Of a stretch of 34,145 nt of DNA, positions 4,520-29,213 are shown in pieces (the first letter of the stretch is position 1; every line of letters starts with the position of its first letter). The translations under genes and the position numbers were made by a program. Where the stretch lies: contig JAHWJR010000004.1 of NCBI GenBank assembly GCA_019348335.1, positions 1-34,145 on the forward strand. The letters are read 5' to 3'. The notes below the pieces were generated by a model. It had not been told where the DNA came from and did no database searches. It saw only the letters and a list, made by a program, of their open reading frames with translations. Origin of the DNA: Actinomycetota bacterium (GTDB lineage Bacteria > Actinomycetota > Acidimicrobiia > Acidimicrobiales > CADCSY01).

Positions 4520-5668
4520 TCAGCGCCTGGTGGTGGCCCGGTAGACCTCCAGCACCTGGGCGGCGACCACCTCGGGGGTGAAGTTCCGGGCCCGCCGGCG
4601 GGCGGCCTCGCCCAGCTGCTCCCGCAGGCCCGGGTCCGCCGCCAGGCGCCGGAGGGTGCCGGCCAGGGTCTCCACGTCACCCGTCGGGTACAGCAGCCCG
4701 TCGGAGCCGTCGGTGATGAGCTCGAGCGGCCCTCCAGCGGCGGCCGCCACCACCGCCAGGCCGGCGGCCATGCCCTCGACCACGACCTGGCCGAACCCCT
4801 CGGTGATCAGCGAGGCGTGCACGAGCACGTCCAGGCCCGCCAGGTCGGCGCTCACGTCTTCGCGGAAGCCGGTCAGCTCCACTCGGTCGGCCAGGCCCAG
4901 ACGAGCCACCTGCTGGCCGAGCGCCTCTTCGTAGGACGCCTCGCCGAACAGGGCTCCTCCGACCACCACCGCCTGCTCGGGACCTTCGGGGAAAGCGGCG
5001 GCGAAGGCGTCGAGGAACACGTGCTGGCCCTTGGACGGCGCCAGGCGGCCCACCATCCCGACCCGCAGCGGCGAGCCGGGGGGGCGGGACCTGGCCACGG
5101 CCTCCACGTGGACGGGTGAGGGGATGACCGTGATCGCCACCCCCGGCGAGTCGAGGCCCTCACGGGTGCTGTCCGAGTTGGCGATCACCGCCGCCGGCAG
5201 GTGGCGGACCATGGCCCGCACCATGCGGATGGCCGCCGGCGGCAGGTAGTCGTCGGCCAGGCGCTCCCGGGCGTGCCACACCACCGGCACCCGGGCCAGG
5301 TTCCCGGCGACGCTGCCGTAGACGTTGGCCTTGAGCGAGTTGGTGTGGACCAGGTCGGGGCGCAGGCGGCGCAGGCGCCGGGCGACCGTGGCCACGTAGT
5401 GGGCGGTGTGGCCCATGCTGGCTCCGGGCAGGCGGCCCGGTCGGACCCGGTCGCGGGACAGGCCCCGGGCTGCCTCCGCCATGGGCAGCACCTCGGTGGA
5501 GATCCCCGCCGCCTCCAACCGGGCGACGAGCGGACCGTCCTCGCCGAGCACGACGTGGGCGTCCACGTCCTCGGCCAGGGCGGGCAGCAGGCGAGCCATG
5601 GCGAGCTCCGCCCCCGACAGCTGGGCGCAGTGGTCCAGGTAGACCACGCGCAGTCGCCCCGATGTCAT
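4520..5668 (-). CDS. GT4-family glycosyltransferase
   Basis: N-terminus LRVVYLDHCAQLSGAELAMARLL and C-terminal half HASLITEGFGQVVVEGMAAGLAVVAAAAGG (E-x7-E region) fit the GT-B/GT4 fold. Confidence 0.85.
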   Translation of the reverse strand: MTSGRLRVVYLDHCAQLSGAELAMARLLPALAEDVDAHVVLGEDGPLVARLEAAGISTEVLPMAEAARGLSRDRVRPGRLPGASMGHTAHYVATVARRLRRLRPDLVHTNSLKANVYGSVAGNLARVPVVWHARERLADDYLPPAAIRMVRAMVRHLPAAVIANSDSTREGLDSPGVAITVIPSPVHVEAVARSRPPGSPLRVGMVGRLAPSKGQHVFLDAFAAAFPEGPEQAVVVGGALFGEASYEEALGQQVARLGLADRVELTGFREDVSADLAGLDVLVHASLITEGFGQVVVEGMAAGLAVVAAAAGGPLELITDGSDGLLYPTGDVETLAGTLRRLAADPGLREQLGEAARRRARNFTPEVVAAQVLEVYRATTRR

Positions 5669-5711: not shown

Positions 5712-7325
5712 ATGTCCCCAGCCGCGAGGCTGAAGCGAGCGCTCGAGACCGACTCGCGCTCCACCACGCTGGCGTTCACCGCCGGGTTGCTGGTGGCGCT
5801 GGCCGTGGGAGGCAGGCTCTTCTACCGCCTGGTCCAGTTGGACGAGGCCGCCTACCGGGCGCCATCCATCACGCTGTCCGCACTCCGCTCGCCCGGGCTC
5901 CTCGTCCTGGTCGTCGTTCCCGCAGCCGTGGTCGTGTGGCTGCGGCGGGGTCTGCGCTGGGGTGACGTGCCCGAGGGCCGCCTGGTGCGCCTGCTCCTAC
6001 TCGCCGCCGCCGGCTCCCTGGTCGTCTCGCTGGCCTTCTACGAGCCCAACTGGTTCTTCGGCCGGTCACATCTCGTCGACCGGGCGCTGCTCGTGGGTCT
6101 GTTCGCCCTCAGCATCTGGCGGCCCGTCGCCCTGGTCCCGTTCACGGTGCTGGCCGCGGTCGTCGCCTCCCAGTTCGCTGTCCCCCTCGGCCGCTACACG
6201 TGGAACGACAAGCGCCTGATCTTCGACGTCGTCATCCTGTTCTGCGTGGCGGCCGGGGCCGGCCTCCTCCGCCGCCGGGAAGGGGTGCGGGCGTTCGTCG
6301 GTGCTGCCTGCGTCCTCGTGGTGTCGTGGTACCTGGTGGCCGGGGTGGGCAAGATCGCCCTCGGTTGGCCAGGACGCGAGGAGCTGGCCAACATGACCCG
6401 ATCGGCTCATCTGGCCGGGTGGCTGACGGCGGGAACCGCCGATCGTGTGGCCGAGGTGGTGGCCAGCGTGAACTGGCTCTTGGTCCCGGCCGCCATCGTG
6501 GTGGAGGTAGCGGTCGTCCTCCTGCTGCTGGGGCGCCGGCCGGCGCTGGCGGTGTTGCTCGCCCTGCCCGGTCTGCACCTGCTGGTGTTCCTGTTGTCGG
6601 GCATCTTCTTCTGGAAGTGGATGGTGTTCGAGCTCGCCCTGCTCGTCTTCTTCCTCCGTTGCCACCGGGAGACCCTCGCCGGCTTCGGCCCCGCCCTGGT
6701 GGTGCTGGCCCTACCCGTCGCCGTCTTGTCGCCCCGCCTGTTCGGGGTGGCGACCCTGGCGTGGTACGACACGCCGTACTCGGTCAACCTGGAGCTCGAG
6801 GCGGTGGGGGAGTCGGGGACGGTGTACCGCGTCGACCGCGTCGACCTGGCGCCCTACGAGGTCCTCTTGGCCCAGGGTCGGCTGAGCTTTCTGGCCCAGC
6901 CGAAGGTGCTCGTGGCCAGTGCCGGCACCGCCCTCGACTGGAAGGTGGCCTCGGCCATCATCACCGCCAAGAGCCCCGCCGACCTCGCCCAGGCCGAAGC
7001 CGAGCTGGCGGTAAGTCACTACCGGGAGGACGACGCCCTCGTCTTCGACCGCTTCGTGCGGGAGCGCTTCGACCCATGGTCCGAGCCGCCACCGCTCGGG
7101 CCGCCGCACCACATCTGGACCGGCCGGGCACCGCCCATCCTGAACGTGCCGCCGACGGGGTTCGACGGGCAGGAGGAGGTGGCCGAGGTCCGGGTCAGGA
7201 TGCACAAGGTCTGGTGGGACGGCGACCGTTACCGGCCTCTTGCCGACTGTATTGTCCGAGTGGTGCCCATGGACCCGGCGGCGGGGCCCACCGACGTGGC
7301 CCCGGCCACCGCTTGCGCCCTCTAG
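5712..7325 (+). CDS. Polytopic membrane protein of unknown function with a soluble C-terminal domain of about 200 aa
   Basis: About 330 aa of repeated hydrophobic helices, then a hydrophilic domain (YDTPYSVNLELEAVGESGTVYRVDRVDLAPYEV...). I recognise no family motif. Coding-like G/C third-position bias. First gene of a + strand triplet. Confidence 0.6.
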   Translation: MSPAARLKRALETDSRSTTLAFTAGLLVALAVGGRLFYRLVQLDEAAYRAPSITLSALRSPGLLVLVVVPAAVVVWLRRGLRWGDVPEGRLVRLLLLAAAGSLVVSLAFYEPNWFFGRSHLVDRALLVGLFALSIWRPVALVPFTVLAAVVASQFAVPLGRYTWNDKRLIFDVVILFCVAAGAGLLRRREGVRAFVGAACVLVVSWYLVAGVGKIALGWPGREELANMTRSAHLAGWLTAGTADRVAEVVASVNWLLVPAAIVVEVAVVLLLLGRRPALAVLLALPGLHLLVFLLSGIFFWKWMVFELALLVFFLRCHRETLAGFGPALVVLALPVAVLSPRLFGVATLAWYDTPYSVNLELEAVGESGTVYRVDRVDLAPYEVLLAQGRLSFLAQPKVLVASAGTALDWKVASAIITAKSPADLAQAEAELAVSHYREDDALVFDRFVRERFDPWSEPPPLGPPHHIWTGRAPPILNVPPTGFDGQEEVAEVRVRMHKVWWDGDRYRPLADCIVRVVPMDPAAGPTDVAPATACAL

Positions 7326-7332
7326 GACGCCG

Positions 7333-8376
7333 GTGAACCGCCGCCGTTTCCTGACCGTGGCCGTGGGCGGCGCCGCCGCTGCCGCCGTCACCGTCCGCCT
7401 GCGCTCCGACGGAGCGTCGACCACCGCGACGAGCCCGCCATCGGCGAGCCCTGAATGTGCCCCGGCTGCCGTCCCTGGCGAGGACGCCCCGCTGCCCTAC
7501 GGCGGCGTGGCCACCCACCTGTGGTACTTCGAGACCCAGTACGGCGACACGGCCCGGGTGGCCGACCACCTCCGCCAGATCGAGGCCCCGATGGTCCGGG
7601 ACGAGTGGCTGATCCCCGAGGCGTGGCCGGAGTACCGCGGCCGCTATGGCGATGCGCTCGAGCTGGTGCACACGGTGGCGGGCACGACGTTCGTCATGGT
7701 CACGGGCCGGGCCACCGAGCCGATCGACCCCGTGCTCGACGAGATGGAGCCCTACGCCGAGCTGCTGGCCGGCATCGAGGGCCCCAATGAGTGGAACCTC
7801 CAGGACAGGCCTGGGTGGAGGGACGAGCTCAGCACCTACACCAAGGAGCTCTACGCCAAGGTCAGGGACCGGCCGGCGTTCGACCATGTTCCCGTGGTCG
7901 GCCCTTCCATCGGGCTGTCGAAGGATTCGGGCCCGCTGTTCGGGGACCACTCCGAGCACATGGACGTCGGCAACTTCCACTTCTACCAGCCGGCCACCCA
8001 GGTCGACCTCCGGTACTACCAGGCGTCGCTGGCCGGTGCCCGGGCCGTGTCCGGCACCAAGCCCATGGTGGCCACCGAGGTCAACGGCATCATCGGGGAC
8101 GGTTATCCCGGCACCGAGCAGGACCAGGCCGCCAACTACGAGTCGCTGATGAAGCTCTTCGGCGACGACGGCGTCCACCGGGGGTTCTGCTACCAGTTGC
8201 TGGACTTCTCCAGGCTCTCCAAGCCGCTGACCCACCGTGAGAACAACTTCGGGTGCTACCGGGTCGACTTCTCGGCCAAGCCGCTGGCGGCGTCGGTGCG
8301 CGAGGTCAACCGGAGGAACGACAGCCCCTTTCTGCTGGGGGACGGGCCCTGGTGCCCGCCGGCGCCGGCCCAGTGA
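7333..8376 (+). CDS. Tat-exported clan GH-A (TIM-barrel) glycoside hydrolase-like protein
   Basis: In-frame GTG at 7333, 8 nt after the upstream stop, gives VNRRRFLTVAVGGAAAAAV (twin-arginine signal). Candidate acid/base is GPNEWN, with an HFY strand motif, and candidate nucleophile is VATEVNG. The track ORF start at 7240 overlaps the upstream gene and is unlikely. Confidence 0.65.
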   Translation: MNRRRFLTVAVGGAAAAAVTVRLRSDGASTTATSPPSASPECAPAAVPGEDAPLPYGGVATHLWYFETQYGDTARVADHLRQIEAPMVRDEWLIPEAWPEYRGRYGDALELVHTVAGTTFVMVTGRATEPIDPVLDEMEPYAELLAGIEGPNEWNLQDRPGWRDELSTYTKELYAKVRDRPAFDHVPVVGPSIGLSKDSGPLFGDHSEHMDVGNFHFYQPATQVDLRYYQASLAGARAVSGTKPMVATEVNGIIGDGYPGTEQDQAANYESLMKLFGDDGVHRGFCYQLLDFSRLSKPLTHRENNFGCYRVDFSAKPLAASVREVNRRNDSPFLLGDGPWCPPAPAQ

Positions 8377-8420: not shown

Positions 8421-9512
8421 ATGGCGGAGATTGCCCTGACTCACGACTATCTGACCCAGCGAGGCGGAGCCGAACGGGTGGTGCTGAGCATGCTGTCGGG
8501 GTTTCCCGGCTCGCCGCTCTACACGTCCCTCTACGAGCCGTCGCTGACCTTCGAGGGCTTCGCCGACCACGACGTGCGCACCCTGTCATTGAACCGCGTT
8601 CGGCCGCTGCGGCGTGAGCACCGGTGGAGCCTGCCGCTGCTGGCTCCGAGCTTCTCCCGCCTGCACGTCGATGCCGACGTGGTGCTGTGCAGCTCCAGCG
8701 GCTGGGCCCACGGCGTGCAGACCGACGGCCGCAAGGTCGTCTACTGCCACAGCCCGGGGCGCTGGCTCTACCAGCGCGAGCGCTACCTGAGGGGTTCACC
8801 GCAGCCCGTGCGGTGGGCGGTGACCGCGCTGGCACCGTCCCTGGAGCGGTGGGACCGCGCCGCCGCCGCATCAGCTGACCGCTACGTCACCACCTCCCGG
8901 GCCGTGCAGCAACGGATCCAAGACGTCTACGGGATCGAGGCCAGCCTGGTGCCGCCGCCCCACACCATCGACACCGCCGGTGCGCAGGAGCCGGTCCCCG
9001 GCCTGGCGCCCGGGTTCGTGCTGTGTGTCGCCCGGCTCATGCCCTACAAGAACGTCGATGCGGTCGTCAGTGCCTTCCGTCGCCTGCCGGAGCACCGCCT
9101 GGTCGTGGTGGGCGAGGGACCTGAGCGACGACGGCTGGAGTCGCTGCTCGGTGCCAACACCACGTTGCTCGGTGTGGTGCCCGACCCCCAGGTCCGCTGG
9201 CTCTACGCCAACTGCGCCGGCCTAGTGGCCGCCTCCCACGAGGACTACGGCCTCACCCCGCTGGAGGCGGCGGCATTCGGCAAGCCCACTGCCGCCCTGC
9301 GGTGGGGGGGCTACCTCGACACCATGGACGAGGGCACCACCGCGGTGTTCTTCGACCGGCCCGAGCCCGAGGAGGTAGCGCCGGCGGTGCAGGCGCTGCT
9401 CGACCGGTCGTGGGACGCCTCGGCCATCCTCGCCCACGCCGGCTGTTTTGACGAGGCCGCGTTCATCACCCGCTTGCGCACGGTGGTGGCCGAGGAAGCG
9501 CAGCGCTGCTGA
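8421..9512 (+). CDS. GT4-family glycosyltransferase
   Basis: MAEIALTHDYLTQRGGAERVVLSM N-terminus, with C-terminal SHEDYGLTPLEAAAFGKPTAAL. AGGA lies about 9 nt upstream of the ATG. Confidence 0.85.
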   Translation: MAEIALTHDYLTQRGGAERVVLSMLSGFPGSPLYTSLYEPSLTFEGFADHDVRTLSLNRVRPLRREHRWSLPLLAPSFSRLHVDADVVLCSSSGWAHGVQTDGRKVVYCHSPGRWLYQRERYLRGSPQPVRWAVTALAPSLERWDRAAAASADRYVTTSRAVQQRIQDVYGIEASLVPPPHTIDTAGAQEPVPGLAPGFVLCVARLMPYKNVDAVVSAFRRLPEHRLVVVGEGPERRRLESLLGANTTLLGVVPDPQVRWLYANCAGLVAASHEDYGLTPLEAAAFGKPTAALRWGGYLDTMDEGTTAVFFDRPEPEEVAPAVQALLDRSWDASAILAHAGCFDEAAFITRLRTVVAEEAQRC

Positions 9513-9664: not shown

Positions 9665-9760
9665 TCAGGAAGTCTCGCCCTGGGCGAGCACGACGATGGT
9701 CTGGGTGAGCTCTTCGACACGACCGATCTCGGTCATCTCGGGAGCTTCGTAGTCACGCAT
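9665..9760 (-). CDS. Candidate lasso-type RiPP precursor peptide, 31 aa: MRDYEAPEMTEIGRVEELTQ / TIVVLAQGETS
   Basis: Hand translation of the minus strand from ATG 9760 to TGA 9667-9665; not present in the ORF track. AAGGGA lies about 5 nt upstream of the ATG. The leader fits YxxPxLx3Gx5Tx (Y4, P7, M9, G13, T19). It sits immediately downstream of the Asn-synthetase-like gene. Confidence 0.6.
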   Translation of the reverse strand: MRDYEAPEMTEIGRVEELTQTIVVLAQGETS

Positions 9761-9842
9761 GTGGTCCCTTTCGGTTCGATTCACCAGGAAAGCGGACCCA
9801 GGTCCGGGCCCGAGGGCAAATTATCCCTTCTTGCGGCCACAG

Positions 9843-11054
9843 TCAAACATCCTCGACCGGGCCGGAGCTCGGGTCGGAAGGAGGCAACGGCTGTTCGCCG
9901 GTCAGCCACGCCCCCTGCAGCAGGGCGACGGCGCCGATCTTGGGCCGGGATGCCGACCACGCCGCCCGCAGGGCCATGGGATCGACCAGGTCCTCGTCGA
10001 CGCCGCGGCCGTCCCAGTGGGCGGCGAAGGCCCGGCTGGTCTCCCGCCAGAAGCCCCCGCCGAGGCTCGACTTGGCCTTGCGGGCGACCACCTCGCCCGG
10101 CAGCACGTCGGCGAACAACGCCCGCATGACCTCGGTCCGCTCGCCGTAGCCGAGCCCGCCCCCGTGGCGGGCGAGGGCGGCGAGGAACCGCGGGTCGAGG
10201 AATGGGTGCACGGCCCTGGCGCCGCAGTCCCGGGCCAGCACGTCGATGGTGGCCAGGCCGAGGGCCAGGCTGCGTCGCCGGGAGAGCCACGGCAGCCACC
10301 GGTCCCAACGTCGGGGTTGGCTGGCGACCTCGGCGGCCACGCCGGACTCCACCATCGCCCGGGGGCCGGGGCGGAGCCAGGGCAGGGGGAGGCGGTGCTG
10401 GCGGGCCTCCCACCTCCGCAGGGGCGGCGGTGCCGCGACCACGCCCAGGTCGATGAGATCGCGCCGACGGGGCCGCCGCCGCCGGCGGGCGACCGAGGAG
10501 AGGCCCGCCCATGGCCACGACCCGAACACGCCGTCGCCGTCATGGCCGGAGAGCAACACGCCGCCCGAGGCCTGTTCGAGCAGGACGTGCTCGTAGTGGA
10601 AGTACGGCGGCCACATGACCCCGTGACGACGCAGCAGGCGGGTGGCGAGCGGTCCCAGGTAGTCGAGCTCGTCCTCGACGTCGATGCGCACCCAGTCGTC
10701 GAGGCCGAGGTGGCCGATCACCCGCTCCTGCCAGCCCGACTCGTCGGCGTCGGCCACACCCGGGTAGCGCAGCGTCACCGGGACGGGCAGGGGCAGGCCT
10801 TCGCGGCGGGCGAGATCGGTGGCCACGGCCAGGACGGCGGAGGAGTCCCTGCCCCCCGAGAAGCCGGCGAAGCAGCGGCCGGTGACCAGCCAGGGGCGCA
10901 GGGCGTCGTCCAGGGCGGCCCTGGGCGACACGTCGGGCCCGACGGAGGGCAGTGGCGGGGTCGGCTGCTCGCCGAAGGGCTTGCCCGAGGCCAACTCCAG
11001 GGCCGTGGCCCGCACCGGCTTGGGCTCGATCGGGGTCCGGCCGGTCTGCGGCAC
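9843..11054 (-). CDS. Asparagine-synthetase-like ATP-dependent amidotransferase (lasso cyclase C-like) lacking the N-terminal glutaminase-like domain
   Basis: PP-loop FSGGRDSSAVLAVA and later Asn-synthase-like segments (HPFLDPRFL, SSLGGGFW). I prefer GTG 11054, preceded by GGGAGAG 10 nt upstream and 20 nt after the permease stop. The ATG at 11135 would overlap the permease gene by 61 nt. Confidence 0.75.
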   Translation of the reverse strand: MPQTGRTPIEPKPVRATALELASGKPFGEQPTPPLPSVGPDVSPRAALDDALRPWLVTGRCFAGFSGGRDSSAVLAVATDLARREGLPLPVPVTLRYPGVADADESGWQERVIGHLGLDDWVRIDVEDELDYLGPLATRLLRRHGVMWPPYFHYEHVLLEQASGGVLLSGHDGDGVFGSWPWAGLSSVARRRRRPRRRDLIDLGVVAAPPPLRRWEARQHRLPLPWLRPGPRAMVESGVAAEVASQPRRWDRWLPWLSRRRSLALGLATIDVLARDCGARAVHPFLDPRFLAALARHGGGLGYGERTEVMRALFADVLPGEVVARKAKSSLGGGFWRETSRAFAAHWDGRGVDEDLVDPMALRAAWSASRPKIGAVALLQGAWLTGEQPLPPSDPSSGPVEDV

Positions 11055-11074
11055 GAGAAGGAGGCTCTCCCTGC

Positions 11075-11916
11075 TCAGAACTGGGTGAGGGTGCCGCTGC
11101 GGCGGGCTCGGTCGACCGAGAGCCGGAACAACCACAGCGACAGCGGCAGTGACACGACGGCGAAGGCCACCAGGGCCACCAGCCGCCCGGTGGCCAGCTC
11201 TCCCCGGAGCAGCGCCGCCCGCAGCACGTCGACCCCCCAGGTGAAGGGCAGCAGGTCGGCCACCAGCCGGAGCGGGCCGGGCAGCAGGTCGATGGGGAAG
11301 TAGGCGCCGGCGAGCAGGCCGAGGGCGGTGGTCACCAGGCCGATGAGGGCGGTGACCTGCTTGACCACCACCGCGAACGAGGCCACGAGCACGCCGACGG
11401 CGGCGAAGGTGACCACCAGGGCCGGGAGCCCGACGACCAGACCGACGATGGAGCCCACACCCAGCTCGATGCGCAGACCGAAGAGCGAGGCGACCAGCAG
11501 CGTGACCAGCCCACCGATCAGCGCCCGCAGCAGCTCGAAGGTGGCGCTGCCCAGCACCACCGCCGACGGCGACACCGGGGAGGCCAGGAGGGTCTCGAAC
11601 GTGCCGCTGGTCTGTTCGGTGCGCAACTTCATGGAGAACGAGGTCAGGGCCGTCTGCACCATGCGCAGCACGATCAGCCCCACGGCGGCGTAGGAGAAGT
11701 AGCCCTTGCTCAGGTCGGCGTCGGCCGGCAGCCGGGAGGGCTCCACCAGTTCGGCGAGGAAGTAGAACAGGGCCAGGGCGAGAGGGACCACGGCCAGGTC
11801 GAGCACGAACTGGAGCCGGTACGAGCGGGCGATCTTCCAGTCCCGCCGCACGAAGGCCGGCGTCAACACCCTCCAGCGCGCCCGGAGCGGCGCCACGGGC
11901 ACCGCCGAGGTCTGGC

Positions 11917-11920
<4 letters not shown>
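11075..11920 (-). CDS. ABC-2 type transporter permease
   Basis: GTG 11920 overlaps the ATPase stop (GTGA). Product VSQTSAVPVAPLRARWRVLTPAFVRRDWKIARSYRLQFVLDL... has about 6 hydrophobic helices. The upstream part of the 496-aa track ORF is an alternative-frame read across the ATPase gene. Confidence 0.8.
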
Positions 11921-12672
<752 letters not shown>

Positions 12673-12713
12673 CGCCGGGCTTGGGTGCTCAGTTGCCACC
12701 GGAGGGCCCTGCC

Positions 12714-13577
12714 GTGGCGGCGGGCTCGGCTGTCCGGAAGCCCTCGACGGCACGGGCAGGATGCTACGGGCTGACGCTCACCGGGGAGGTGGTCGACCTG
12801 GCGGCGGCCATGATCGGGCCTCCGCTGCCCGGCTGGCCGGCGGTCGAGCTGGAGTGGACGTCGCTGCTCGCCGACCCGCCGGCCGCGGGATCGTTCGGCC
12901 CGTCCAGCGCCGTGCTGTCGCTCCTGAGCGGCGGCCACGCCGTGTTCGACCGCGAGCGACGGGTGGCCCGGTTCCACAAGCCCCGCCCGCCCGAGGGCCA
13001 CGAGCTGGCGCACCCGTGCCTGTCGGCGGTGGGGCTGGTCTTTGCCCGCTGGGACGGCCGGGTGGCGCTGCATGCCGGCGGCGTGGTGGTCGGCGGCCGG
13101 GCGTGGGGCGTGCTGGGGGCCCGGGAGGCGGGCAAGAGCACGACTCTGGCCCACCTGGCCCGCGCCGGCCATGGGGTGCTGTGCGACGACCTGCTGGTCA
13201 TCGACGACGGCCAGGCCTGCGCCGGCCCCCGCACCCTCGACCTGCGCCCGGAGACGGCTCGACGCCTCGAGGGTGAGGACCTGGTCGAGGTGCGCCAGGG
13301 CCAGCGACACCGGGTGCTGCTCCCGCCGGCGCCGGCCACCGTGCCGTTGGGCGGGTTCTTCGTGCTGGGCGTGGGCGACGAGGTCTCCGTCGAGCCGGTG
13401 CCCCCGGTGGAGCGGCTGCCGGCGCTGCAGCCCCATGTCACGTTGCAGCAGATCGGGCTCCCGGGCGCGGGGCTGCTGGAGCTGGTCGGGTTGCCCATGT
13501 GGCGGGTGCACCGCTCACGGGCGTGGGCCGACCTTCCCCGTCTGATCGAGCGGCTGGTGGCCACTGCCGCCGGCTGA
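12714..13577 (+). CDS. HPr-kinase-like P-loop protein (candidate RiPP precursor Ser kinase)
   Basis: LHAGGVVVGGRAWGVLGAREAGKSTTLAHLARAGHGVLCDDLLVID resembles the HPr kinase C-terminal P-loop domain. N-terminal YGLTLTGEVVDL matches the usual start of lasso-associated kinases. Start is uncertain: GTG 12714 is the nearest in-frame start upstream of that segment, and TTG 12681/12693 are also possible. Confidence 0.7.
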   Translation: MAAGSAVRKPSTARAGCYGLTLTGEVVDLAAAMIGPPLPGWPAVELEWTSLLADPPAAGSFGPSSAVLSLLSGGHAVFDRERRVARFHKPRPPEGHELAHPCLSAVGLVFARWDGRVALHAGGVVVGGRAWGVLGAREAGKSTTLAHLARAGHGVLCDDLLVIDDGQACAGPRTLDLRPETARRLEGEDLVEVRQGQRHRVLLPPAPATVPLGGFFVLGVGDEVSVEPVPPVERLPALQPHVTLQQIGLPGAGLLELVGLPMWRVHRSRAWADLPRLIERLVATAAG

Positions 13578-13970
13578 CGGGCTGCCGTTTCCGGCTCCTG
13601 CTGGCGGTGCCGGCCCGGGGGGTGGCCGCCGGCTCACCTCGATGTAACCGGCGGAGGCCTCGGCCGGCTCGCCGTCGAGCCAGGCGTGGGCCTTGAACCC
13701 CTCGCCGGGGGCGGTGACGCCGATGACCAGGTCGCGTGGGCGTCCGTGGGCGGCATCCCAGGTCTGCAACACCGCCGATCGGACCAGGCACGTGTCGCCT
13801 CGGGACGCCAGCACGGCCGCCACCCAGCGCCGGCACCCCCGCGGAAGGGGAGGCGGCGGGGGGACCACGAGGTGATCGATGCCGCCCGCGTCGAGGTCGG
13901 TGCGCACCTGGCGGGCGGTGCGGCGGGCCCACCACATCGCCCGCGCCGAGTTCAGGCCCTTGATCTTCAC
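13515..13970 (-). CDS. Transglutaminase-like cysteine protease (lasso leader peptidase B2-like)
   Basis: Cys in SRGDTCLVRSAVLQ and His/Asp in FKAHAWLDGE. GTG 13970 overlaps the B1 stop (GTGA). The P/G-rich C-terminal tail overlaps the 3' end of the convergent kinase gene by 63 nt. Confidence 0.75.
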   Translation of the reverse strand: MKIKGLNSARAMWWARRTARQVRTDLDAGGIDHLVVPPPPPLPRGCRRWVAAVLASRGDTCLVRSAVLQTWDAAHGRPRDLVIGVTAPGEGFKAHAWLDGEPAEASAGYIEVSRRPPPGPAPPAGAGNGSPSAGGSGHQPLDQTGKVGPRP

Positions 13971-14311
13971 GACTCGAGCAACCCCCGTTCGGCGAGGCTG
14001 GCCACGAAGACGTCGACGTCGCGCTCGGCTCGGGCCCGTTCCACGTCGAAGGTGTCGAGCAGGACCTGCACCAGCTGCGAGCGGGTGGCGCCCTCGACGA
14101 TGGCCGGCCACAGCGCGGCGCCGGCGGCGTTGACCGCCAGGTAGACCGAGCCCGCACGGTCGAGCACGACCACCTGCCCGTCGACCTCCCGCCAGTCGAC
14201 GGCATCGGCCCGCAGGGTGAGCACGCGGTCGGACTCCTCGACCTCGCCGCTCGCTGCGGATGGGGTGGGGTCGTCACGGTCGGCGGGCATGTGTCGATGG
14301 TAGAGGCACAC
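13967..14311 (-). CDS. PqqD-family RiPP recognition element protein (lasso B1-like)
   Basis: WREVDGQVVVLDRAGSVYLAVNAAGAALWPAIVEGATRSQLVQVLLDTFDVERARAERDVDVFVASLAERGLL follows the PqqD pattern. Start is GTG 14311 or ATG 14290. It lies 21-42 nt downstream of the Wzy-like gene. Confidence 0.8.
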   Translation of the reverse strand: MCLYHRHMPADRDDPTPSAASGEVEESDRVLTLRADAVDWREVDGQVVVLDRAGSVYLAVNAAGAALWPAIVEGATRSQLVQVLLDTFDVERARAERDVDVFVASLAERGLLES

Positions 14312-14332: not shown

Positions 14333-15784
14333 TTACGCCCGGCCGGCGCCCCTCCCGGCCACGGTGGAGCCGGCCTCGTCCTCTGGCTCGTCCGGCGGAC
14401 GGCCAGCGCCGGCCAGCGTCCACAACAGCATGCCGGGGAGGTTGCCGAACACGAAGCTGCCGGCGGCGGTGAGCACCAGCAGGGTGAGGAACCCGTACTC
14501 CGAAGGGCGCGAGTGGCGGGACAGCCAGAAGAGCGCCCAGCCCAGCAGGATCAGCCCCACCAGCCCCAGCTCGCCGAGCACGACCAGGTAGCCGTTGTCG
14601 AGGGTGGCGTCGCTCGCCGCCCGGCTGCCGGACGAGTACCGGCCCACGCCCACGCCGAAGGGAGACGTCAGGGAAGCGGCCCGCTCGACCAGGTCGAGGC
14701 GGGCGTTGTAGCTCTTGTCCTCGTCGAGGTTGGTGAACGTCTGCGCCCGTTCCACGACGATGTCGCCCTGGGGGGCGATGAGCACGAAGCCCATGACCAC
14801 GACGACGAAGGCCACGAGCTGGCGCGCCGGCCGGCCCCTGGTGGCGAGCACGCCCACGACCAGGGCCGCGGCCAGGCCCAGCCATACGCTGCGGGCCAGG
14901 GTCAACAGCAAAAACACGGCCGAGGACGACAGGGCCCAGCCCCGCAGCAGGGCGGACGGGCGCACCAGCTGGCGCTGGAAGACCATGAGCAGGATCACCA
15001 CGGCGCTGAGCGTCGCCGCCGTCTGGGGGGCGGGCAGGGTCCCGAAGGGACGGAAGTTCGCCTCACCGAAGGTGCCGGCGCTGCGCAGGCCCGAGCGGAA
15101 CAGCCAGGTGACGTCCCAAGGGAAGGCGATGAAGTACTGGAGGATGCCGTAGGTGGCGGCGATGGAGCCACAGATCACCGTGGCACGGGCGAACACCGAC
15201 AGCCCCCCGGAGATCCGCCGCACGCCGAAGGCGGCGAGGAGCGGAACGGCGAAGTTCAACCAACCGGCCAGGGCGACGAGGGGCGTGCCGATGGCGAGGC
15301 CGGCGCCGACGGTGGCCCAGATCAACAGCAGCGTGACCGCTCCCGGCTTGGGGCAGCGCAGCCCGTGCACGGCGAGGGGGATGGCGACGACGAAGGGGAA
15401 GATGGCGGCCATGTCCGCCGAGGGGTCGGCAGCGGGGAACACCCGTCGCAGCAGGGCGGAGAACACAAAGGCGCCCACGGTGGCGACGATGGAGGCGGAG
15501 GGATGCAGCCACGCCGCTGCGGCCAGCACCCCGGCCAACAGCAGCAGCACCACGTCACGGAACGCGAAGGCGGAGGTGAGCTGGGGCAGCAGGGCCCCGA
15601 GGACCACCGGGACGGCGATGGCCCCCAGCGTGATCCAGGCGCCGGCACTGACCCGTCGGGCACCACCGACGGGGCCCCGGGAGGGGCCGGAGCGAGATGG
15701 TGCACGCACCGGGACGGACACGGGAGGCGAAGGGGCGGCGACGCGACGGGAACGGCGATGACCCCGGCGAAGCGCCGGGGTCAT
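14333..15784 (-). CDS. O-antigen ligase / Wzy-like polymerase family membrane protein, copy 1
   Basis: About 10 or more TM helices with a loop motif LLLTLARSVWLGLAAALVVG of Wzy_C type. The ATG at 15784 is buried in a 13-bp hairpin, so GTG 15721 or 15709 are alternative starts. Confidence 0.75.
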   Translation of the reverse strand: MTPALRRGHRRSRRVAAPSPPVSVPVRAPSRSGPSRGPVGGARRVSAGAWITLGAIAVPVVLGALLPQLTSAFAFRDVVLLLLAGVLAAAAWLHPSASIVATVGAFVFSALLRRVFPAADPSADMAAIFPFVVAIPLAVHGLRCPKPGAVTLLLIWATVGAGLAIGTPLVALAGWLNFAVPLLAAFGVRRISGGLSVFARATVICGSIAATYGILQYFIAFPWDVTWLFRSGLRSAGTFGEANFRPFGTLPAPQTAATLSAVVILLMVFQRQLVRPSALLRGWALSSSAVFLLLTLARSVWLGLAAALVVGVLATRGRPARQLVAFVVVVMGFVLIAPQGDIVVERAQTFTNLDEDKSYNARLDLVERAASLTSPFGVGVGRYSSGSRAASDATLDNGYLVVLGELGLVGLILLGWALFWLSRHSRPSEYGFLTLLVLTAAGSFVFGNLPGMLLWTLAGAGRPPDEPEDEAGSTVAGRGAGRA

Positions 15785-15835: not shown

Positions 15836-16144
15836 TCAGCTGATGTCGACGTGCTGGCTCTGGGCGGCCCGGCGGTTGCGCTCGAGCAGCACCAGCACGG
15901 CACCGACGGCGAGCAGCCCGGCGCCGATCTGGGTGAGGGGCAGGCTCTCAGCGCCGGTCTTGGGCAGCTGGCCCTGCCTGGCCGGGACCTTGTTGACCTT
16001 GTTGACCTTCTCGACGGTCTTGACCACCTTGACGACGGTCACGTCGGGCTGGGGCGGGTACAGAGGGTCGTTCGCGCCCGCCTCAGCAGCACCTGTCAAG
16101 AACAGGCTCATGGCCGCAGCGACGACGGCAATCTTGCGAATCAT
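15836..16144 (-). CDS. Small secreted LPXTG-motif cell-wall-anchored protein (102 aa)
   Basis: Signal peptide MIRKIAVVAAAMSLFLTGAAEA. Sorting signal LPKTG, then hydrophobic AESLPLTQIGAGLLAVGAVLVLL and the charged tail ERNRRAA. GGGAGG lies 7 nt upstream of ATG 16144; the track start at 16147 is a TTG one codon upstream. Confidence 0.85.
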   Translation of the reverse strand: MIRKIAVVAAAMSLFLTGAAEAGANDPLYPPQPDVTVVKVVKTVEKVNKVNKVPARQGQLPKTGAESLPLTQIGAGLLAVGAVLVLLERNRRAAQSQHVDIS

Positions 16145-16273
16145 CAAAATACCTCCCGGTTGTCCACCGGCGTCGGGCGGTCAGAGTGTGTCTGGGCGTC
16201 TTCGATCAGCTTCCTGCGTGAGCAGTATGCCGGTTCTACCCCCGCGTGTCGAGTCTTTACGCCTGGTCGTCAC

Positions 16274-19201
16274 TCAGCCCCGCTCGATGCGCACCCGCAC
16301 CGTGGCATCCCGGTCGAGCACCAGCTCGGCGGTGGCGGTCCCAGACCTCGTCACGGTGGCGCCCTCGGCCTCGGCGATGCGCCAGCCGGCCGGCACCTCG
16401 AGGGTCACGCTCATCTCCTCGGGTACGAGCAAGGGCTGGTGCAGCAGGTCGAGCTCGTACCACCCGCCGGGGGCGAGTGGCGCCTCGCCCTGGAGGTCGA
16501 CGGTCACCGTCCTCGAGGACAGGGAGGGCAGGTCGAAGAACTCCGAGTACACCCGCCGGCCCAGCTCGTCCTCGGCCTCCATCGACAGGGGCTCCCCGTC
16601 GAGCGTGGCGCCGGTGAAGTCGAACGGGGTGTACACCGACAGGTAGGTCGTGTTGAGACCAGCGGGGTTGCCCGGGAAGAACGGCCCGATGATGTACTGG
16701 GGCAGGCCCTCGGCGGGAGCGGTGTTCTCCAGGGTGACCTCGAGCTGGCTGGTCACCTGCACCCCGTCTGCCGTCGGCACCAGCTCGGCGGCGTAGCTGG
16801 AGCGCCGGCGCAGGTAGTAATCGAGCTTGTTGCCGCCGGCGTTCTGGTTGATCAACAGGACCGAGTCGGATGGTACGGGCTCCACCTCGCCCGCCAGGCC
16901 CACCCGCTCGACCAGCGCCTGCTCCTCGGCCCGGGTGAACCAGACCCGCAGGTGGCCGCCGGCGACGGCGTCGGAGAGGGTCTCGATGATGCGGGCGGGG
17001 TTGCCGAGCTCACGAGCGCTGAAGGCGTCGACGGCGGCCCGGGCCACGTCGCCGAGGAAGTCGATCCGGTCCTCGTTGTCGGCTTCGAAGGCGATGTAGG
17101 CCTGGTTGAGGCTGATGTCGACCACGTTGTCGGCGGTGATGGGCTCGGGCCAGACGTCGACGGTGACCGGTCCGGTGAGCCGGAGGAACGCGGCCAGCCC
17201 GACGGGGTCGATGCCCACCACCCCGTCGATGGGCCGCCCGCCCGACTGGGGATAGAGGTGGGAGATCACCTCGGCCACGGTGGGGAAGTCGGGTGAGAAG
17301 TTCACGCTCTGCCATGTGGTGGCCACCTCGAAGCGGGTGTAACGGGCGAGGTAGTCGTCGGGGGCCTCGACGGTGCGGACCTCCGCTCCTCCCTCGTTGA
17401 GGTCGCGCACCCGGCCCAGGTGCTCCAGGCGGAGCCGGCCCTGGTCGGCGACCAGCTCCCCGTAGTTGCCCATGAACCCCCCGGTGGCCCGCAGCTCGGC
17501 GTTGTTCTCCACGCTGAGGAAGTAGTGACGGGGGCCGCCGCCGCCGAGCACGGGCGGGAGCACCTCGGCCGCCAACGCCGCCACCTCGGCCTCGTCGGCG
17601 GTCTCGGCCAGCCGGTCGTCCAGCCCCACCAGCCGGTCCCGCACCACGGGCACCAGGTGAGCCTGCTCGATGCCGGCCGTTCGCTCGTGGGCCCGGCGCA
17701 GCGTGGCGGCGGTGTCGGCCAGCCCGGGCGCCAGCCGGCGGATCTCCTCCAGGGGGACGACGCCGCCCGAGACCTGGAGCGTGCCGGGCGCCGCCCGTGC
17801 CGCCGCTGCGCCCGAGGTCACCAGGTCGGCGCCCACCCCGGTCAGGGTCCGGGCCGCGGCCAGGTTGGGGCCCAGCAGGGGCACGCCGAGGCCCAGCGAG
17901 GTCAGCGGCCCCCGGAGCCGGCCGTCGGCGACCACGAAGGCGTCCCGGGCCTCCTCGAAGGCAGCGCCGGCGGTGTCGACCTCTCCCTGGCGGGCGCGAG
18001 CCAGGCCCCGCTCGGCGGCGGCTGCTCCGTCGGCGATGGTGGTGGCGCTGGTGGCCAGGGCCAGGGTGGCGGGCACCACCAGGACGGCGGCGCCGGCGAC
18101 CAGCCCGAGCAGGGCCAGGCGGGCGGTGGTTGGGAACCTGGGCGTGGCCGACGAGTGCACCTGGCCCCGGGCGAGGGCGAGGACCACGACCGACAGCACT
18201 GCCGCCGCCAGGACGGGAGTGGCGACGAGCAGGTCGCCCCGGTCGGCCACCACGGCGGCCGCGCCTACCAGGATTTGGGCGCCACCCAGCACCACGAGCA
18301 CCAGCAACCACGGCAGGCGGGCCGTCCGCAGCCGGTGGGGGAGGCCGTCGGGACGGCGCTGGGTGAGGGGCCGCCGGCGGCGGAGGCGGTCGAGGGCCAC
18401 CACCAGGAGGTTGAGCACCGGGATGACCACCACGGGCAACACCACGGCGAGGCTGAGCGGGCTGGGCGTGGCCGGCTCCACGGCGGTGACCAGGCCGGCC
18501 AGGGCGAAACCGGCGAAGAGGCACCCGGAGTCGCCCAGCCAGAACGGATGGCGGATGCCGGCCACCAGCATGCCGGCCAGGCCGGCGGCGAGGGCGAGGG
18601 CGGGGACGGCCACCTCGGGCTGGCCGGCGCCGGCGGCGATCACGCCCAGGGCGGCGGCGGCCGGCGCCAGCACGGCGGCAGCGGCACGGGGGGCGGCGTC
18701 GAGGAGCCGGGTGGCCTCGACCAGGGTCACGACCACGATCACGACCACGAGGGCATCGGTGGCGTCGGTGGCGGTGACCGAGGTGGTGATGCCCAGTGCC
18801 ACGATGACGAGGGCTGCCACCACTTCGGCGCCCACGCGGAGCGACGGCAGGAGGCGACGCCGATCCCCGGCCAGGCCGAGCAAGCCGAGGGCCACGGCCA
18901 CGGCCAGGATGGGCAGTGCCGGCCCTTCGGGAGCTCCGGCCCACAGCGCGCCGGCGACCGTGGCCACCATCAGCACGCTCCCGTTGGACGGTCCCCGCCG
19001 GCGCCGGCGTGAGGCGTCAGGCTGTTCAGCGAGGCGCTCGGCCCGCAGCGACAGCCCGGTGACGACCACGGCGACAGCGGCGGCGACGGCCGCCACCGCC
19101 AGGAGCTGGGCGGTGGGCACTAGCGGGGAACGACGGCCGTGCAGCCGGGGGAGGGGAGCACGCCGGAATGGTTGCAGGCCCCACCGCCCGCAGCACGTCA
19201 C
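16274..19201 (-). CDS. Fusion protein: degenerate MraY/WecA-like polytopic domain + DUF4012-like extracytoplasmic domain
   Basis: The N-terminal ~340 aa are polytopic and retain the WLGDSGCLFAGFALAGL motif. The C-terminal ~600 aa contain HYFLSVENNAELRATGGFMGNYGELV, typical of DUF4012. GTG start at 19201; internal starts are possible. Confidence 0.65.
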   Translation of the reverse strand: MTCCGRWGLQPFRRAPLPRLHGRRSPLVPTAQLLAVAAVAAAVAVVVTGLSLRAERLAEQPDASRRRRRGPSNGSVLMVATVAGALWAGAPEGPALPILAVAVALGLLGLAGDRRRLLPSLRVGAEVVAALVIVALGITTSVTATDATDALVVVIVVVTLVEATRLLDAAPRAAAAVLAPAAAALGVIAAGAGQPEVAVPALALAAGLAGMLVAGIRHPFWLGDSGCLFAGFALAGLVTAVEPATPSPLSLAVVLPVVVIPVLNLLVVALDRLRRRRPLTQRRPDGLPHRLRTARLPWLLVLVVLGGAQILVGAAAVVADRGDLLVATPVLAAAVLSVVVLALARGQVHSSATPRFPTTARLALLGLVAGAAVLVVPATLALATSATTIADGAAAAERGLARARQGEVDTAGAAFEEARDAFVVADGRLRGPLTSLGLGVPLLGPNLAAARTLTGVGADLVTSGAAAARAAPGTLQVSGGVVPLEEIRRLAPGLADTAATLRRAHERTAGIEQAHLVPVVRDRLVGLDDRLAETADEAEVAALAAEVLPPVLGGGGPRHYFLSVENNAELRATGGFMGNYGELVADQGRLRLEHLGRVRDLNEGGAEVRTVEAPDDYLARYTRFEVATTWQSVNFSPDFPTVAEVISHLYPQSGGRPIDGVVGIDPVGLAAFLRLTGPVTVDVWPEPITADNVVDISLNQAYIAFEADNEDRIDFLGDVARAAVDAFSARELGNPARIIETLSDAVAGGHLRVWFTRAEEQALVERVGLAGEVEPVPSDSVLLINQNAGGNKLDYYLRRRSSYAAELVPTADGVQVTSQLEVTLENTAPAEGLPQYIIGPFFPGNPAGLNTTYLSVYTPFDFTGATLDGEPLSMEAEDELGRRVYSEFFDLPSLSSRTVTVDLQGEAPLAPGGWYELDLLHQPLLVPEEMSVTLEVPAGWRIAEAEGATVTRSGTATAELVLDRDATVRVRIERG

Positions 19202-19274: not shown

Positions 19275-21032
19275 ATGGCCCCCCTCGACGACTCGGAGGA
19301 GATCGAGCTCCGCGACTACCTGGCGGTGCTCCGGCGGCGCAAGTGGTCGGTCCTGGTCTCGGTGGCGGTCGTCGTCCTCGCCGCCGTGGCGGTCAGCCTG
19401 GTGCAGACCCCCGTGTACGAGGCCAGCGCCGAGGTGCTGCTCCAACCCCGGTCGTCCGAGGAGATCTTCTCGCCCGACGCCGACCAGGTGCAGTTCCGCG
19501 TCGACCAGACCCGCGTGAACAACGCGGTGGCGGTGATGAGGTCCCGCTCGGTGCGCGAGGCGGTGGCAGCCGAGTTGGGCAAGGAGCCGGAGGTCACGAT
19601 TCGTCCCCAGGAGGTTTCGGACGTCGTCACCATCAGCGCCGAGAGCACCGACCCTGCCGAGGCGGCCAACGTGGCCACCACCTATGCCCAGACCTACATC
19701 GCCAGCCGGCGCCAGGCCCTGGTCGACGACCTGCTCGCCGCCAGCGAGGAGGTGCAGGCCAAGGTCGACGACATCGAGCGCCAGATCAATGACCTCGACG
19801 CCGCCATCACCGACATTGACCGGAGGATCGGGGAGGCCGACCTGGCCTCTGAGCGGCAGGCCCTGCAGGCCGAGCGCCAGCGACTCGAGGGGGACAACGC
19901 CGCGGTCCGCCAGACACTGCAGAACCAGCGCAACGCCTACGCCGAGCAACTCGACCGGCTACAGCTGGCCCGGAACCTGACCCAGACCGGCGGTGCCCAG
20001 CTGGTGTCGGCGGCGGCCGAGCCGACGACGCCGGTGCGCCCGAAGCCCGTTCGCAACGCCGTGCTGGCGCTGGTGGTGGGGCTGATGTTGGGCGTGGCCG
20101 TGGCCTTCCTGCGTGAGCACCTCGACGACACGGTCAAGGGCAAGGACGACCTGGACCGGGTGATGCCCGGCGTCACCGTGCTCGGCCTCATCCCTGCGGT
20201 GGCGGGCTGGAAGGACCGTGCGACCCCCCGCGTGGTGTCGGTCAGCGATCCCACCTCGCAGGTCGCCGAGGCCTACCGCTCCTTGCGCACGTCGGTGCAG
20301 TTCCTCTCACTCGACGACCCGCTCCGCATCATCCAGCTCACCAGTCCCAACGCCTCCGAGGGCAAGACCACCACGCTGGCCAACTTGGCCGTGGCCCTGT
20401 CCCGGGCCGGCCAACGGGTGGTGGTGGTGTGCTGCGACCTGCGCCGGCCGCGTGTCCACGAGTTCTTCGGGCTCGACAATGCCGTGGGGTTCACCTCGGT
20501 GCTGCTGGGCGAGGTCCCGCTGTCGGCCGCCCTTCAACAGGTGCAGGGCGAGCGCCTGGCCCTGCTGGCGTCCGGCCCGCCGCCCCCCAACCCCTCCGAA
20601 CTGCTGGCGTCCAAGCGGACCAGCGACCTGCTCACCGCGCTGCGCCGGGAGTGTGACGTGGTCCTGGTCGATTCGCCCCCGGTGCTGCCGGTGACCGACG
20701 CCATGGTGCTTTCGCGCATGGTCGACGCCACCATCCTCGTCGGCACGGCCGGACAGACCACCCGGCGTGAGTACCAGCGCAGCTTCGAGATGCTCCAGCA
20801 GGTCGACGCCAACCTGGTCGGGACCGTGCTCAACGGGGTGGAGCAGGGCGGAGGCTACGGCTACGGGTACGGGTACGGGTACCGGCAGGTTGAAGGTGCC
20901 AAAGGGAAGGCCGACCGGGCGTCGCCCAACGGTGCGGGCGCCAATGGCGCCGAGCCAACCGGGAACGGCAGCCGCCGTCGACCCGCTCCCTCCTCCACGA
21001 GTGCACCGCCGGGCGGCGTGGCAGGGCACTGA
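19275..21032 (+). CDS. Polysaccharide co-polymerase / BY-family tyrosine autokinase, copy 2
   Basis: ATG 19275 gives MAPLDDSEEIELRDYLAVLRRRKWSVL, collinear with copy 1. Walker A SPNASEGKTTTLANLA, A' VVCCDLRRPR, B VVLVDSPPVLP. Tyr cluster GGYGYGYGYGYRQ. The upstream 1.6 kb of the 1120-aa track ORF is antisense to the DUF4012 gene. Confidence 0.9.
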   Translation: MAPLDDSEEIELRDYLAVLRRRKWSVLVSVAVVVLAAVAVSLVQTPVYEASAEVLLQPRSSEEIFSPDADQVQFRVDQTRVNNAVAVMRSRSVREAVAAELGKEPEVTIRPQEVSDVVTISAESTDPAEAANVATTYAQTYIASRRQALVDDLLAASEEVQAKVDDIERQINDLDAAITDIDRRIGEADLASERQALQAERQRLEGDNAAVRQTLQNQRNAYAEQLDRLQLARNLTQTGGAQLVSAAAEPTTPVRPKPVRNAVLALVVGLMLGVAVAFLREHLDDTVKGKDDLDRVMPGVTVLGLIPAVAGWKDRATPRVVSVSDPTSQVAEAYRSLRTSVQFLSLDDPLRIIQLTSPNASEGKTTTLANLAVALSRAGQRVVVVCCDLRRPRVHEFFGLDNAVGFTSVLLGEVPLSAALQQVQGERLALLASGPPPPNPSELLASKRTSDLLTALRRECDVVLVDSPPVLPVTDAMVLSRMVDATILVGTAGQTTRREYQRSFEMLQQVDANLVGTVLNGVEQGGGYGYGYGYGYRQVEGAKGKADRASPNGAGANGAEPTGNGSRRRPAPSSTSAPPGGVAGH

Positions 21033-21161
21033 CCCGGGCGGCGCCGAGACCTCCAGATGGTGAGTCTCGACCGTTACAGTGCGGTTGTGGGTGTGGGTGA
21101 CACGAAAGCTTCGACGCAGACGCCACCGCAGGCCAGCGTCGAAGAGCCGCAGAGCGCCGAA

Positions 21162-26611: not shown

Positions 26612-26614
26612 GAA

Positions 26615-28272: not shown

Positions 28273-28342
28273 CGAACGTGGTCCACTGGCGGTGCATCGA
28301 GGTGCGGGACCGGGAGAAACATTCTCTCCAGACTACAAACGG

Positions 28343-29212: not shown

Positions 29213-29213
29213 C

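Follow-up and report, generated by a model that had tools for sequence, protein, structure and literature searches.

What phosphorylated and glycosylated lasso-type peptides do is an open question, and the enzyme logic that produces them (B1, B2, C, a kinase and an NTP transferase) recurs in a locus of an Actinomycetota bacterium of the order Acidimicrobiales. The locus lies on contig JAHWJR010000004.1 of assembly GCA_019348335.1, of which we analysed positions 1 to 34,145 (34,145 nucleotides, hereafter the window). It raises the question of what kind of peptide is made there and what that peptide has to do with the surface polysaccharide genes on both sides of it. We consider it probable that positions 9665 to 14311 encode a functional lasso-family pathway for a peptide that is ribosomally made and post-translationally modified (a RiPP), of the kinase/nucleotidyltransferase type, which is built into a Wzy-dependent polysaccharide locus. 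Directly observed were the identities of the genes, their catalytic motifs, the conservation of the precursor and the synteny, and these carry the argument.

The initial annotation had seen in seven genes a lasso-family RiPP set of the split-B type, to which a kinase and an ABC-2 exporter belong and which lies within an exopolysaccharide (EPS)-type locus, and this was borne out. All seven genes lie where it had placed them (Table 1), carry strong coding signatures and match the expected families. In the direction of minus-strand transcription, from 14311 to 9665, they are B1, B2, the plus-strand gene K, the ATP-binding cassette (ABC) ATPase, the ABC-2 permease, C and the precursor gene A; the operon description was also right in that A is the last gene after ABC-ABC-C, B1-B2 form a separate unit and K is on the other strand. 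The GC content at third codon positions (GC3) is 0.87-0.96 for the B1, B2, K, C and both ABC frames and 0.75 for the small open reading frame (ORF) A, in a window with 70-77% GC across its left two thirds (background approximately 72%). Profile hidden Markov model searches matched the PqqD, Transglut_core3 and Asn_synthase families that had been named for B1, B2 and C, whereas K had no match to any Pfam family.

The whole small ORF A reads MRDYEAPEMTEIGRVEELTQTIVVLAQGETS and consists of a leader, MRDYEAPEMTEIGRVEELTQ, followed by a predicted 11-residue core, TIVVLAQGETS, that ends in Ser. The leader carries a YxxPxL...G....LT motif, present in A as YEAPEMTEIGRVEELT-Q when written as YxxPxL...G.....T with the Thr in the penultimate position, and it exceeds the cutoff of the NCBI model lasso_leader_L3 (NF033521). 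A Shine-Dalgarno-like site, AAAGGGA, is located 4 nucleotides upstream of the ATG. A GTG at 9784, which would yield 39 amino acids, was rejected as the start because the ATG at 9760 has the conserved Shine-Dalgarno site and gives the form that is deposited or called elsewhere. The expectation that a gene caller would miss this precursor did not hold: the protein is identical to the deposited MBW3643989.1, "lasso RiPP family leader peptide-containing protein", and a gene of 31-36 amino acids at the position of A is called in the gene sets of four other assemblies. The standard annotation pipeline does not miss precursor A.

Counts for the wider family refer to a sample of 80 of the at least 415 genome loci that encode C relatives, and the close clade comprises 17 loci (L001-L009 and L161-L168) whose C proteins are 52-85% identical to that of the window. 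The nearest relatives of the window are uncultured Actinomycetota and Acidimicrobiales metagenome-assembled genomes (MAGs); relatives were found in Acidimicrobiia, Thermoleophilia and Actinomycetes. A small ORF with the motif Y..P.[LMV]...G....[L]T occurs around the C homologues in 71 of the 80 loci. The shuffled window gives 0.145 chance hits per 34 kb, and in 1.14 Mb of related loci the motif occurred 90 times, at a distance from C of no more than 3 kb in 88 cases and on the C strand in 82, which is far from chance expectation. Across 13 related loci, the leader is almost invariant and most of its nucleotide changes fall at third codon positions, with, for example, one or two differences at codon position 2 versus eight to ten at position 3. 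Because the leader is nearly invariant and its changes are concentrated at the third position, the precursor appears to be under purifying selection. A GAAAGG site is retained upstream of A in close relatives.

The core boundary assumes that cleavage occurs, as is usual, one residue past the conserved Thr (the Thr(-2) rule). Cores of the close clade are of three types: TI[VI][VI][VL][AE][QV]GE(T/QA)S with 11-12 residues, to which the window's core belongs; [ET][IV]VVAGDET...[ST] with 11-16 residues; and longer forms with a GGNS end. Common to the 17 loci are a beta-branched hydrophobic stretch, usually a G-[DE] and a C-terminal Ser or, more rarely, Thr. The 11-12-residue type is found in at least nine loci, with synonymous variation and an intact Shine-Dalgarno site. 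Among 144 distinct precursors of the family, the typical core length is approximately 24, so that the window type stands at the extreme short end; Gly is the first core residue in 50, an Asp or Glu occupies one of positions 7-9 in 93, and Ser is the last residue in 65. At locus L002 (6151-6439) there are two tandem precursor genes with the identical core TIVIVAQGETS and differing leaders (MRSYEAPTVTEIG... and MREYAAPTITEIG...). Locus L058 (10034-10885) holds three tandem precursors with cores of 8-10 residues (ESATSLPG, ESITSGPT and ESAPSTADSF), and because these lack Asp or Glu at positions 7-9, some family members may not be cyclised at all.

The label "lasso" given to the window by the initial annotation fits the genes, which are of the lasso family, but overstates the product. 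Threading requires that the core begin with a small residue, that positions 7-9 offer an Asp or Glu, and that a loop and a tail with plug residues be present; the window core has Glu9 at a ring-compatible position, Thr1 at its start and a tail of only two residues, Thr10-Ser11. Because these two residues leave nothing to thread and lock, no threaded lasso is plausible. As a guide to size, the lasso peptide huascopeptin is reportedly 13 residues long. Gly and Ala dominate position 1 of characterised lasso peptides (PMC13608877), and huascopeptin, the smallest one isolated, has a Gly1-Asp7 ring (PMC9784485).

C is a single-domain protein whose ORF is open up to 11135, with an alternative start at GTG 11015. 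The PP-loop residues S93-G-G-x-D97-S98, G200-D201 of the GDG motif and K355 are invariant in 25 sequences, and because the PP-loop, the GDG motif and the C-terminal Lys are all kept, ATP-dependent carboxylate activation by C is plausible. The AlphaFold2 (AF2) model (predicted local distance difference test score, pLDDT, 88) shows a single synthetase domain with residues 1-34 disordered, and its best folds in Foldseek are TsnB9, AsnB and human ASNS. Its profile aligns to residues 203-453 of E. coli AsnB only, the N-terminal domain being missing. C homologues are 345-425 amino acids long, and at 50% identity the family counts 1,078 representatives whose E is 1e-30 or better. We presume C to be a macrolactam synthetase mainly because many distant members of this short family serve cores that look like those of textbook lasso peptides, an example being the Occultella core GEGWAGSDDTFLYFIRYGTDPSS.

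Nothing relevant emerged when the literature was searched for truncated lasso cyclases and for reports of lasso peptides from Acidimicrobiia or Thermoleophilia. A metagenome scan with the single C protein returned no relative, and a scan with the C alignment returned relatives of at most 50% identity, mostly on short contigs, so that the close clade was not extended. Five loci (L033, L043, L057, L065 and L076) carry two short-C paralogues in tandem or near each other, and a second C lies inside the locus in L010, L037, L042 and L050.

B1 and B2 are supported as an RiPP recognition element and a leader peptidase by Pfam matches above the cutoffs (Table 1). With the NCBI lasso models, B1 reached 43.1 bits in NF033530, below the cutoff of 70, and B2 reached 32.6 bits in NF033537, just under the cutoff of 33. 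An alternative start of B1 is ATG 14290. The catalytic Cys and His of B2 had been assigned correctly: Cys61 (TCL) and His95 (AHAW) are invariant in 24 homologues, while a third acidic residue is not. B2 is coupled to B1 through a GTGA overlap, which is present in the sequence as initially described. In the close clade, B2 has a Pro/Gly-rich C-terminal extension of approximately 35-40 amino acids that B2 proteins of the wider family lack and that is encoded in part antisense to the end of K. Among the scanned window proteins, none matched a signal-peptidase family.

K is convergent with B2, with a 63-nucleotide 3' overlap (13515-13577), and divergent from the ABC operon. Overlaps of this type recur in most close relatives (L001-L005, L007, L161, L164, L165 and L167). 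K matched TIGR04352 at E = 0.0019, and a profile built from 30 homologues gave HPr(Ser) kinase 3tqf as its top PDB sequence match (E = 1.3e-3), over H...GxxGxGKS...DD, whose Walker A GKS and DD motif are invariant. The AF2 model of K (pLDDT 91) matched phosphoenolpyruvate carboxykinase (PEPCK) and HprK/P structures in Foldseek, and a few K relatives bear the name Ser kinase or HPr kinase among the UniRef entries. Taken together, the profile match and the two folds agree with the HPr-kinase-like P-loop protein of the initial annotation, and by analogy with characterised clusters K presumably phosphorylates the C-terminal Ser of the precursor. Five loci with Ser-ending precursors, L061, L064 and L069 (Occultella) and L053 and L078 (Jiangella-type), had no full K homologue within 8 kb by tblastn; either their kinase is encoded at another place, or the C-terminal Ser serves for more than phosphorylation.

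The likely true start of the ABC ATPase is ATG 12672, and the start of the ABC-2 permease overlaps the ATPase stop. The pair is the presumed peptide exporter, and the permease was detected alongside C in 37 of the 80 loci. We rejected a Wzm/Wzt-type glycan exporter as the primary assignment because the pair accompanies the RiPP genes in many loci without detectable relatives of the window's glycan genes. Between 9400 and 14500, neither a sigma-70-like promoter nor a convincing terminator was found, a result that is uninformative for a high-GC actinobacterium.

The initial annotation had called the layout atypical. It is unlike that of textbook clusters, yet it is the conserved norm, because all 17 close loci share the window order B1-B2 / K on the opposite strand / ABC-ABC-C-A. 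Nor is the opposite-strand kinase an oddity, since it recurs as a rule in the wider family, where the common order is (NTP_transf_5) B1 B2 C, with K on the opposite strand, and A, and where K is usually convergent and next to C. In tblastn searches with the window proteins, relatives co-occurred with C in the 80 loci as follows: B1 in 70, K in 65, the ABC ATPase in 51, B2 in 49, NTP_transf_5 in 25, and Wzy and BY-kinase in 9 each.

The flanking genes are glycan genes, as initially described, with matches to BY-kinase, two GT4 genes, Wzy_C and a WecA-like/DUF4012 fusion, and in all 17 close loci the RiPP genes lie amid Wzy_C, GT4, NTP_transf_5, DUF4012, Bac_transf or BY-kinase genes, in at least two glycan arrangements. 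Wzy_C lies directly upstream of B1, in the same direction and with a gap of 21 nucleotides (in L161, a 4-nucleotide overlap), and this adjacency is retained in L001-L004, L161, L164 and L165. Because the two are co-directional and only 21 nucleotides apart, Wzy_C and B1-B2 are probably in one transcript. GT4b adjoins A in most close loci, and in a sister subclade (L005-L009 and L168) NTP_transf_5 is the divergent neighbour of B1; in L168 (5196-6515), a DDE transposase parts this otherwise divergent pair. Among 150 non-core neighbour ORFs from 42 loci outside the close clade, the leading families were NTP_transf_5 (13), LuxR-type regulators (12) and GT4 (10-11). Two or three complete EPS-plus-RiPP modules, paralogous to one another, occur within a single MAG (YX2bin15 with L002, L004 and L005; 0707_bin12 with L001 and L009), every one of them equipped with a precursor type and a glycosyltransferase set of its own.

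From homology and the published subfamily, we infer the order of steps, the ring, the phosphorylation, the glycosylation and the functional coupling to the glycan genes as follows. B1 would bind the 31-residue precursor via its YEAPxMTEIG...LT leader, K would phosphorylate core Ser11 on the linear precursor, and B2, as a Cys/His protease, would cut after Gln20. C would then adenylate the Glu9 side chain and join it to the Thr1 amine, resulting in a 9-residue macrolactam. Because only Thr10-Ser11 follow the ring, the product would be a small branched-cyclic (lariat) peptide and not a threaded lasso. The phospho-Ser would probably be extended with sugar by NTP_transf_5, perhaps also by GT4 enzymes of the locus, and the ABC-2/DrrA pair would export the product. 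NTP_transf_5, which the initial annotation had overlooked, is by analogy the probable counterpart of the pseudomycoidin enzyme PsmN.

A further step may be considered, in which the peptide is not a free natural product but a covalent acceptor or primer of the polysaccharide made by this locus, an idea that we regard as distinctly unlikely. K would phosphorylate the C-terminal Ser, NTP_transf_5 and GT4 would glycosylate the phosphate, and Wzy_C would extend or transfer the glycan, resulting in a macrolactam-capped peptide-phospho-glycan conjugate.

Several points weigh against a kinase-type lariat pathway coupled to the glycan genes. The sequence matches of K to HprK are weak (E about 1e-3), Thr at core position 1 is unusual for lasso peptides, and the score of C in NF033535, the lasso-cyclase model of NCBI, is 19 bits, far below the cutoff of 525. 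A characterised member of the single-domain C family was sought and none was found; we infer the cyclase activity of C from its context and its retained PP-loop residues. Applying the Thr(-2) rule to the sister subclade puts the acidic residue at position 10, and a cut one residue further on would put it at position 9, which leaves the cut site or ring size there uncertain. The assignment of NTP_transf_5 to PsmN is a putative one, based on family and position. Because Wzy or BY-kinase relatives occur in only approximately 10% of the wider-family loci, the glycan coupling may be clade-specific or incidental.

This last point bears on whether the genes form a self-contained lasso-type cluster, for example an antimicrobial one, that merely sits in a variable region of envelope genes and whose glycan neighbours have no role. 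The set has its own exporter, and the frequent gain and loss of related Bacilli systems has been read as the horizontal transfer of conflict genes (PMC13381572), both of which speak for such a cluster. We hold it to be possible but on the unlikely side: the RiPP genes stay between glycan genes in 17 of 17 close loci despite rearrangement, Wzy, B1 and B2 are co-directional with gaps of -4 to approximately 100 nucleotides, and each of the two or three complete modules in a MAG has its own precursor. Moreover, GT4 and NTP_transf_5 are top non-core neighbours even in distant loci, and the same association with glycan genes arose in Bacilli.

The core and the cyclase admit another explanation, namely that the product is a linear phospho(glyco)peptide, like the linear polyphosphorylated peptides (LPPs) of Bacillota, and that C does other work, for example amidating or ligating a carboxylate at a side chain or at the C terminus. 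A lasso would need a longer core, positions 7-9 are free of Asp and Glu in 51 of the 144 family precursors, some cores have only 8-10 residues, C is without the N-terminal domain of the NCBI lasso-cyclase model and of AsnB, and its closest PDB folds are amidotransferases (TsnB9 and AsnB). However, every core of the close clade has an acidic residue after Gly at a ring-compatible distance, and many cores served by a short C (Occultella, Jiangella) are canonical, with G1 or A1, Asp at position 8 or 9 and a long aromatic tail. LPP systems are also without B2 and C, both of which are intact here, and we judge a linear product to be quite improbable. That the locus is instead a decaying remnant with a truncated core, from which no product is made any more, is hardly credible. 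The length of the core at the extreme short end would fit with decay, but the recurrence of this core type with synonymous variation and an intact Shine-Dalgarno site, the catalytic residues and high GC3 kept by all enzymes, and the two precursor copies with identical cores in L002 speak against it.

Among known kinds, the kinase/nucleotidyltransferase (paeninodin/pseudomycoidin) lasso subfamily comes closest, and the window fits into it in mechanism. Kinase-bearing lasso clusters are established in Firmicutes and Proteobacteria, where the C-terminal Ser is phosphorylated by an HprK homologue while the precursor is still linear (PMC8498205). In pseudomycoidin, the uncharacterised NTP transferase PsmN puts one or two hexoses on the phosphate of the phospho-Ser; the unmodified peptide is a branched cycle and not a threaded lasso, and the authors suggested that the sugars might serve as a plug (PMC6993621). 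Popov et al. (2026) described a kinase/NTP-transferase lasso subfamily embedded in capsule loci of Bacilli, in families restricted to Bacillota; they considered it conceivable that the peptides are modified through adjacent glycan genes, described the roles as unknown, could only speculate on a role in biofilm formation, and took the frequent gain and loss of these systems to suggest horizontal transfer typical of conflict genes (PMC13381572). The initial annotation had not mentioned this precedent. The window shares with this subfamily the split B1/B2, an Asn-synthetase-type C, an HprK-like kinase, a Ser-ending precursor, an NTP transferase in the locus, an ABC exporter and the location, frequent in the subfamily, in capsular polysaccharide loci (PMC8498205, PMC6993621 and PMC13381572).

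There are also differences. The window is from Actinomycetota, whereas paeninodins are described as restricted to Bacillota, and its leader has YxxP (YEAP) where paeninodin recognition elements prefer WxxP (PMC13381572). Its core has 11 residues, with Thr1 and a two-residue tail, whereas in pseudomycoidin the ring is closed at Asp9 and the tail extends to residue 21 or beyond. Unlike the paeninodin/pseudomycoidin clusters, the window has a single-domain C of approximately 390-400 amino acids and a K that is transcribed convergently on the opposite strand. Its exporter is of the two-component ABC-2/DrrAB type; characterised paeninodin/pseudomycoidin clusters use a fused exporter.

A two-precursor locus from Jiangella (L053) is similar in other respects, with a C of the same single-domain family (45% identity), a C-terminal Ser and a YxxPxLxxxGSVxELT leader matched by the same NCBI model; its product is uncharacterised. 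Its cores have 24-27 residues with Ala1, Asp9 and an aromatic loop and are lasso-compatible, which that of the window is not. A 2026 paper reports that it is without a counterpart in any characterised cluster and that its precursors received a negative RODEO score (PMC13608877). The locus has no transporter and is not described as lying in a Wzy-type locus; only a short, partial K-like match was seen there. The LPP systems of Bacillota use a SpI/SipW-type leader peptidase without a cyclase or B2, whereas the window has B2 and C, and their precursors have 35-200 amino acids and are phosphorylated on core Ser3, compared with 31 amino acids here. Already known, then, are the annotated precursor, the flagging of relatives by antiSMASH/PGAP and the association with capsule loci, published for another phylum. 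Still noteworthy are the large single-domain cyclase family, the conserved, unthreadable 11-residue core and the operon-level integration with Wzy-type glycan genes in a distant phylum.

Table 1. Genes of the RiPP set and of the surrounding glycan locus (positions in the window)
Feature	Coordinates	Strand	Evidence or remark
Precursor gene A	9665-9760	-	31 codons from ATG; NF033521 26.1 bits (cutoff 19)
C, single-domain Asn-synthetase-like	9843-11054	-	PF00733 50.3 bits; FSGGRDSS PP-loop
ABC-2 permease (DrrB-like)	11075-11923	-	PF01061 73.3 bits; six transmembrane (TM)-like segments
ABC ATPase (DrrA-like)	11917-12753	-	TIGR01188 222 bits, PF00005 103.5 bits
K, HprK/PEPCK-fold P-loop kinase	12714-13577	+	profile, AF2/Foldseek; Walker A GKS
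B2, transglutaminase-like Cys leader peptidase	13515-13970	-	PF13471 (Transglut_core3) 38.4 bits (cutoff 26)
B1, PqqD-like RiPP recognition element	13967-14311	-	PF05402 54.9 bits (cutoff 23.4)
Wzy_C-family membrane protein (polymerase or ligase type)	14333-15784	-	PF04932 45.3 bits; twelve TM-like segments
BY-kinase	1731-3518		glycan flank
NTP_transf_5 nucleotidyltransferase	3522-4481	-	PF14907 83.8 bits; directly 3' of GT4a
GT4a glycosyltransferase	4520-5668	-	PF00534 109.5 bits; syntenic across close clade
10-TM protein without family match	5712-7325	+	
Protein without family match	7240-8376	+	
GT4b glycosyltransferase	8421-9512	+	PF00534 72.7 bits; convergent with A
Small LPXTG protein	15836-16147	-	
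WecA-like protein fused to DUF4012	16274-19201		
Second BY-kinase	from ~19341		

Two further conserved genes to the left of GT4b had no Pfam or NCBIfam match. The product of 5712-7325 has 537 amino acids, approximately 10 TM-like segments and a soluble C-terminal domain, and one may speculate that it is the missing flippase or polymerase-type component. The 378-amino-acid product of 7240-8376 has an RRRFL twin-arginine-like N-terminus and NEW and TE motifs, which may resemble those of clan-A glycoside hydrolases. Between Wzy and the WecA-like/DUF4012 gene, the small LPXTG protein has 103 amino acids with a signal peptide, an LPKTG sortase motif, a TM segment and a charged tail; by tblastn, a relative adjoins DUF4012 in L005 and L008, and small uncharacterised genes occupy its position in L163, L164 and L168. 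Further to the right, approximately 19341-31549 holds a second glycan-type set that includes, beside the second BY-kinase, two GT4 enzymes, three S-adenosylmethionine methyltransferases, two FkbM-type methyltransferases and a sulfotransferase. Its GC content is 0.60-0.69, compared with 0.70-0.77 in the left part of the window, and because it is so markedly lower, this suggests a different origin. A sulfotransferase gene also starts some phospho-lasso clusters of Firmicutes (PMC8498205).

The occurrence of such a pathway in Wzy-type loci of a distant phylum, apparently in an operon with Wzy and in several modules per genome, makes a link between peptide and glycan more credible, and the locus offers a minimal system in which this link can be tested. 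Were the peptide indeed an acceptor of the polysaccharide, this would explain the phospho-lasso clusters in the capsule loci of Bacilli. The analysis also flags a large family of single-domain short cyclases (approximately 1,078 representatives at 50% identity). If the 11-residue cores are cyclised, lasso machinery would be used here to make simple lariat caps, which, if true, would have a bearing on the amount of cyclase and of peptide that closing a ring requires.

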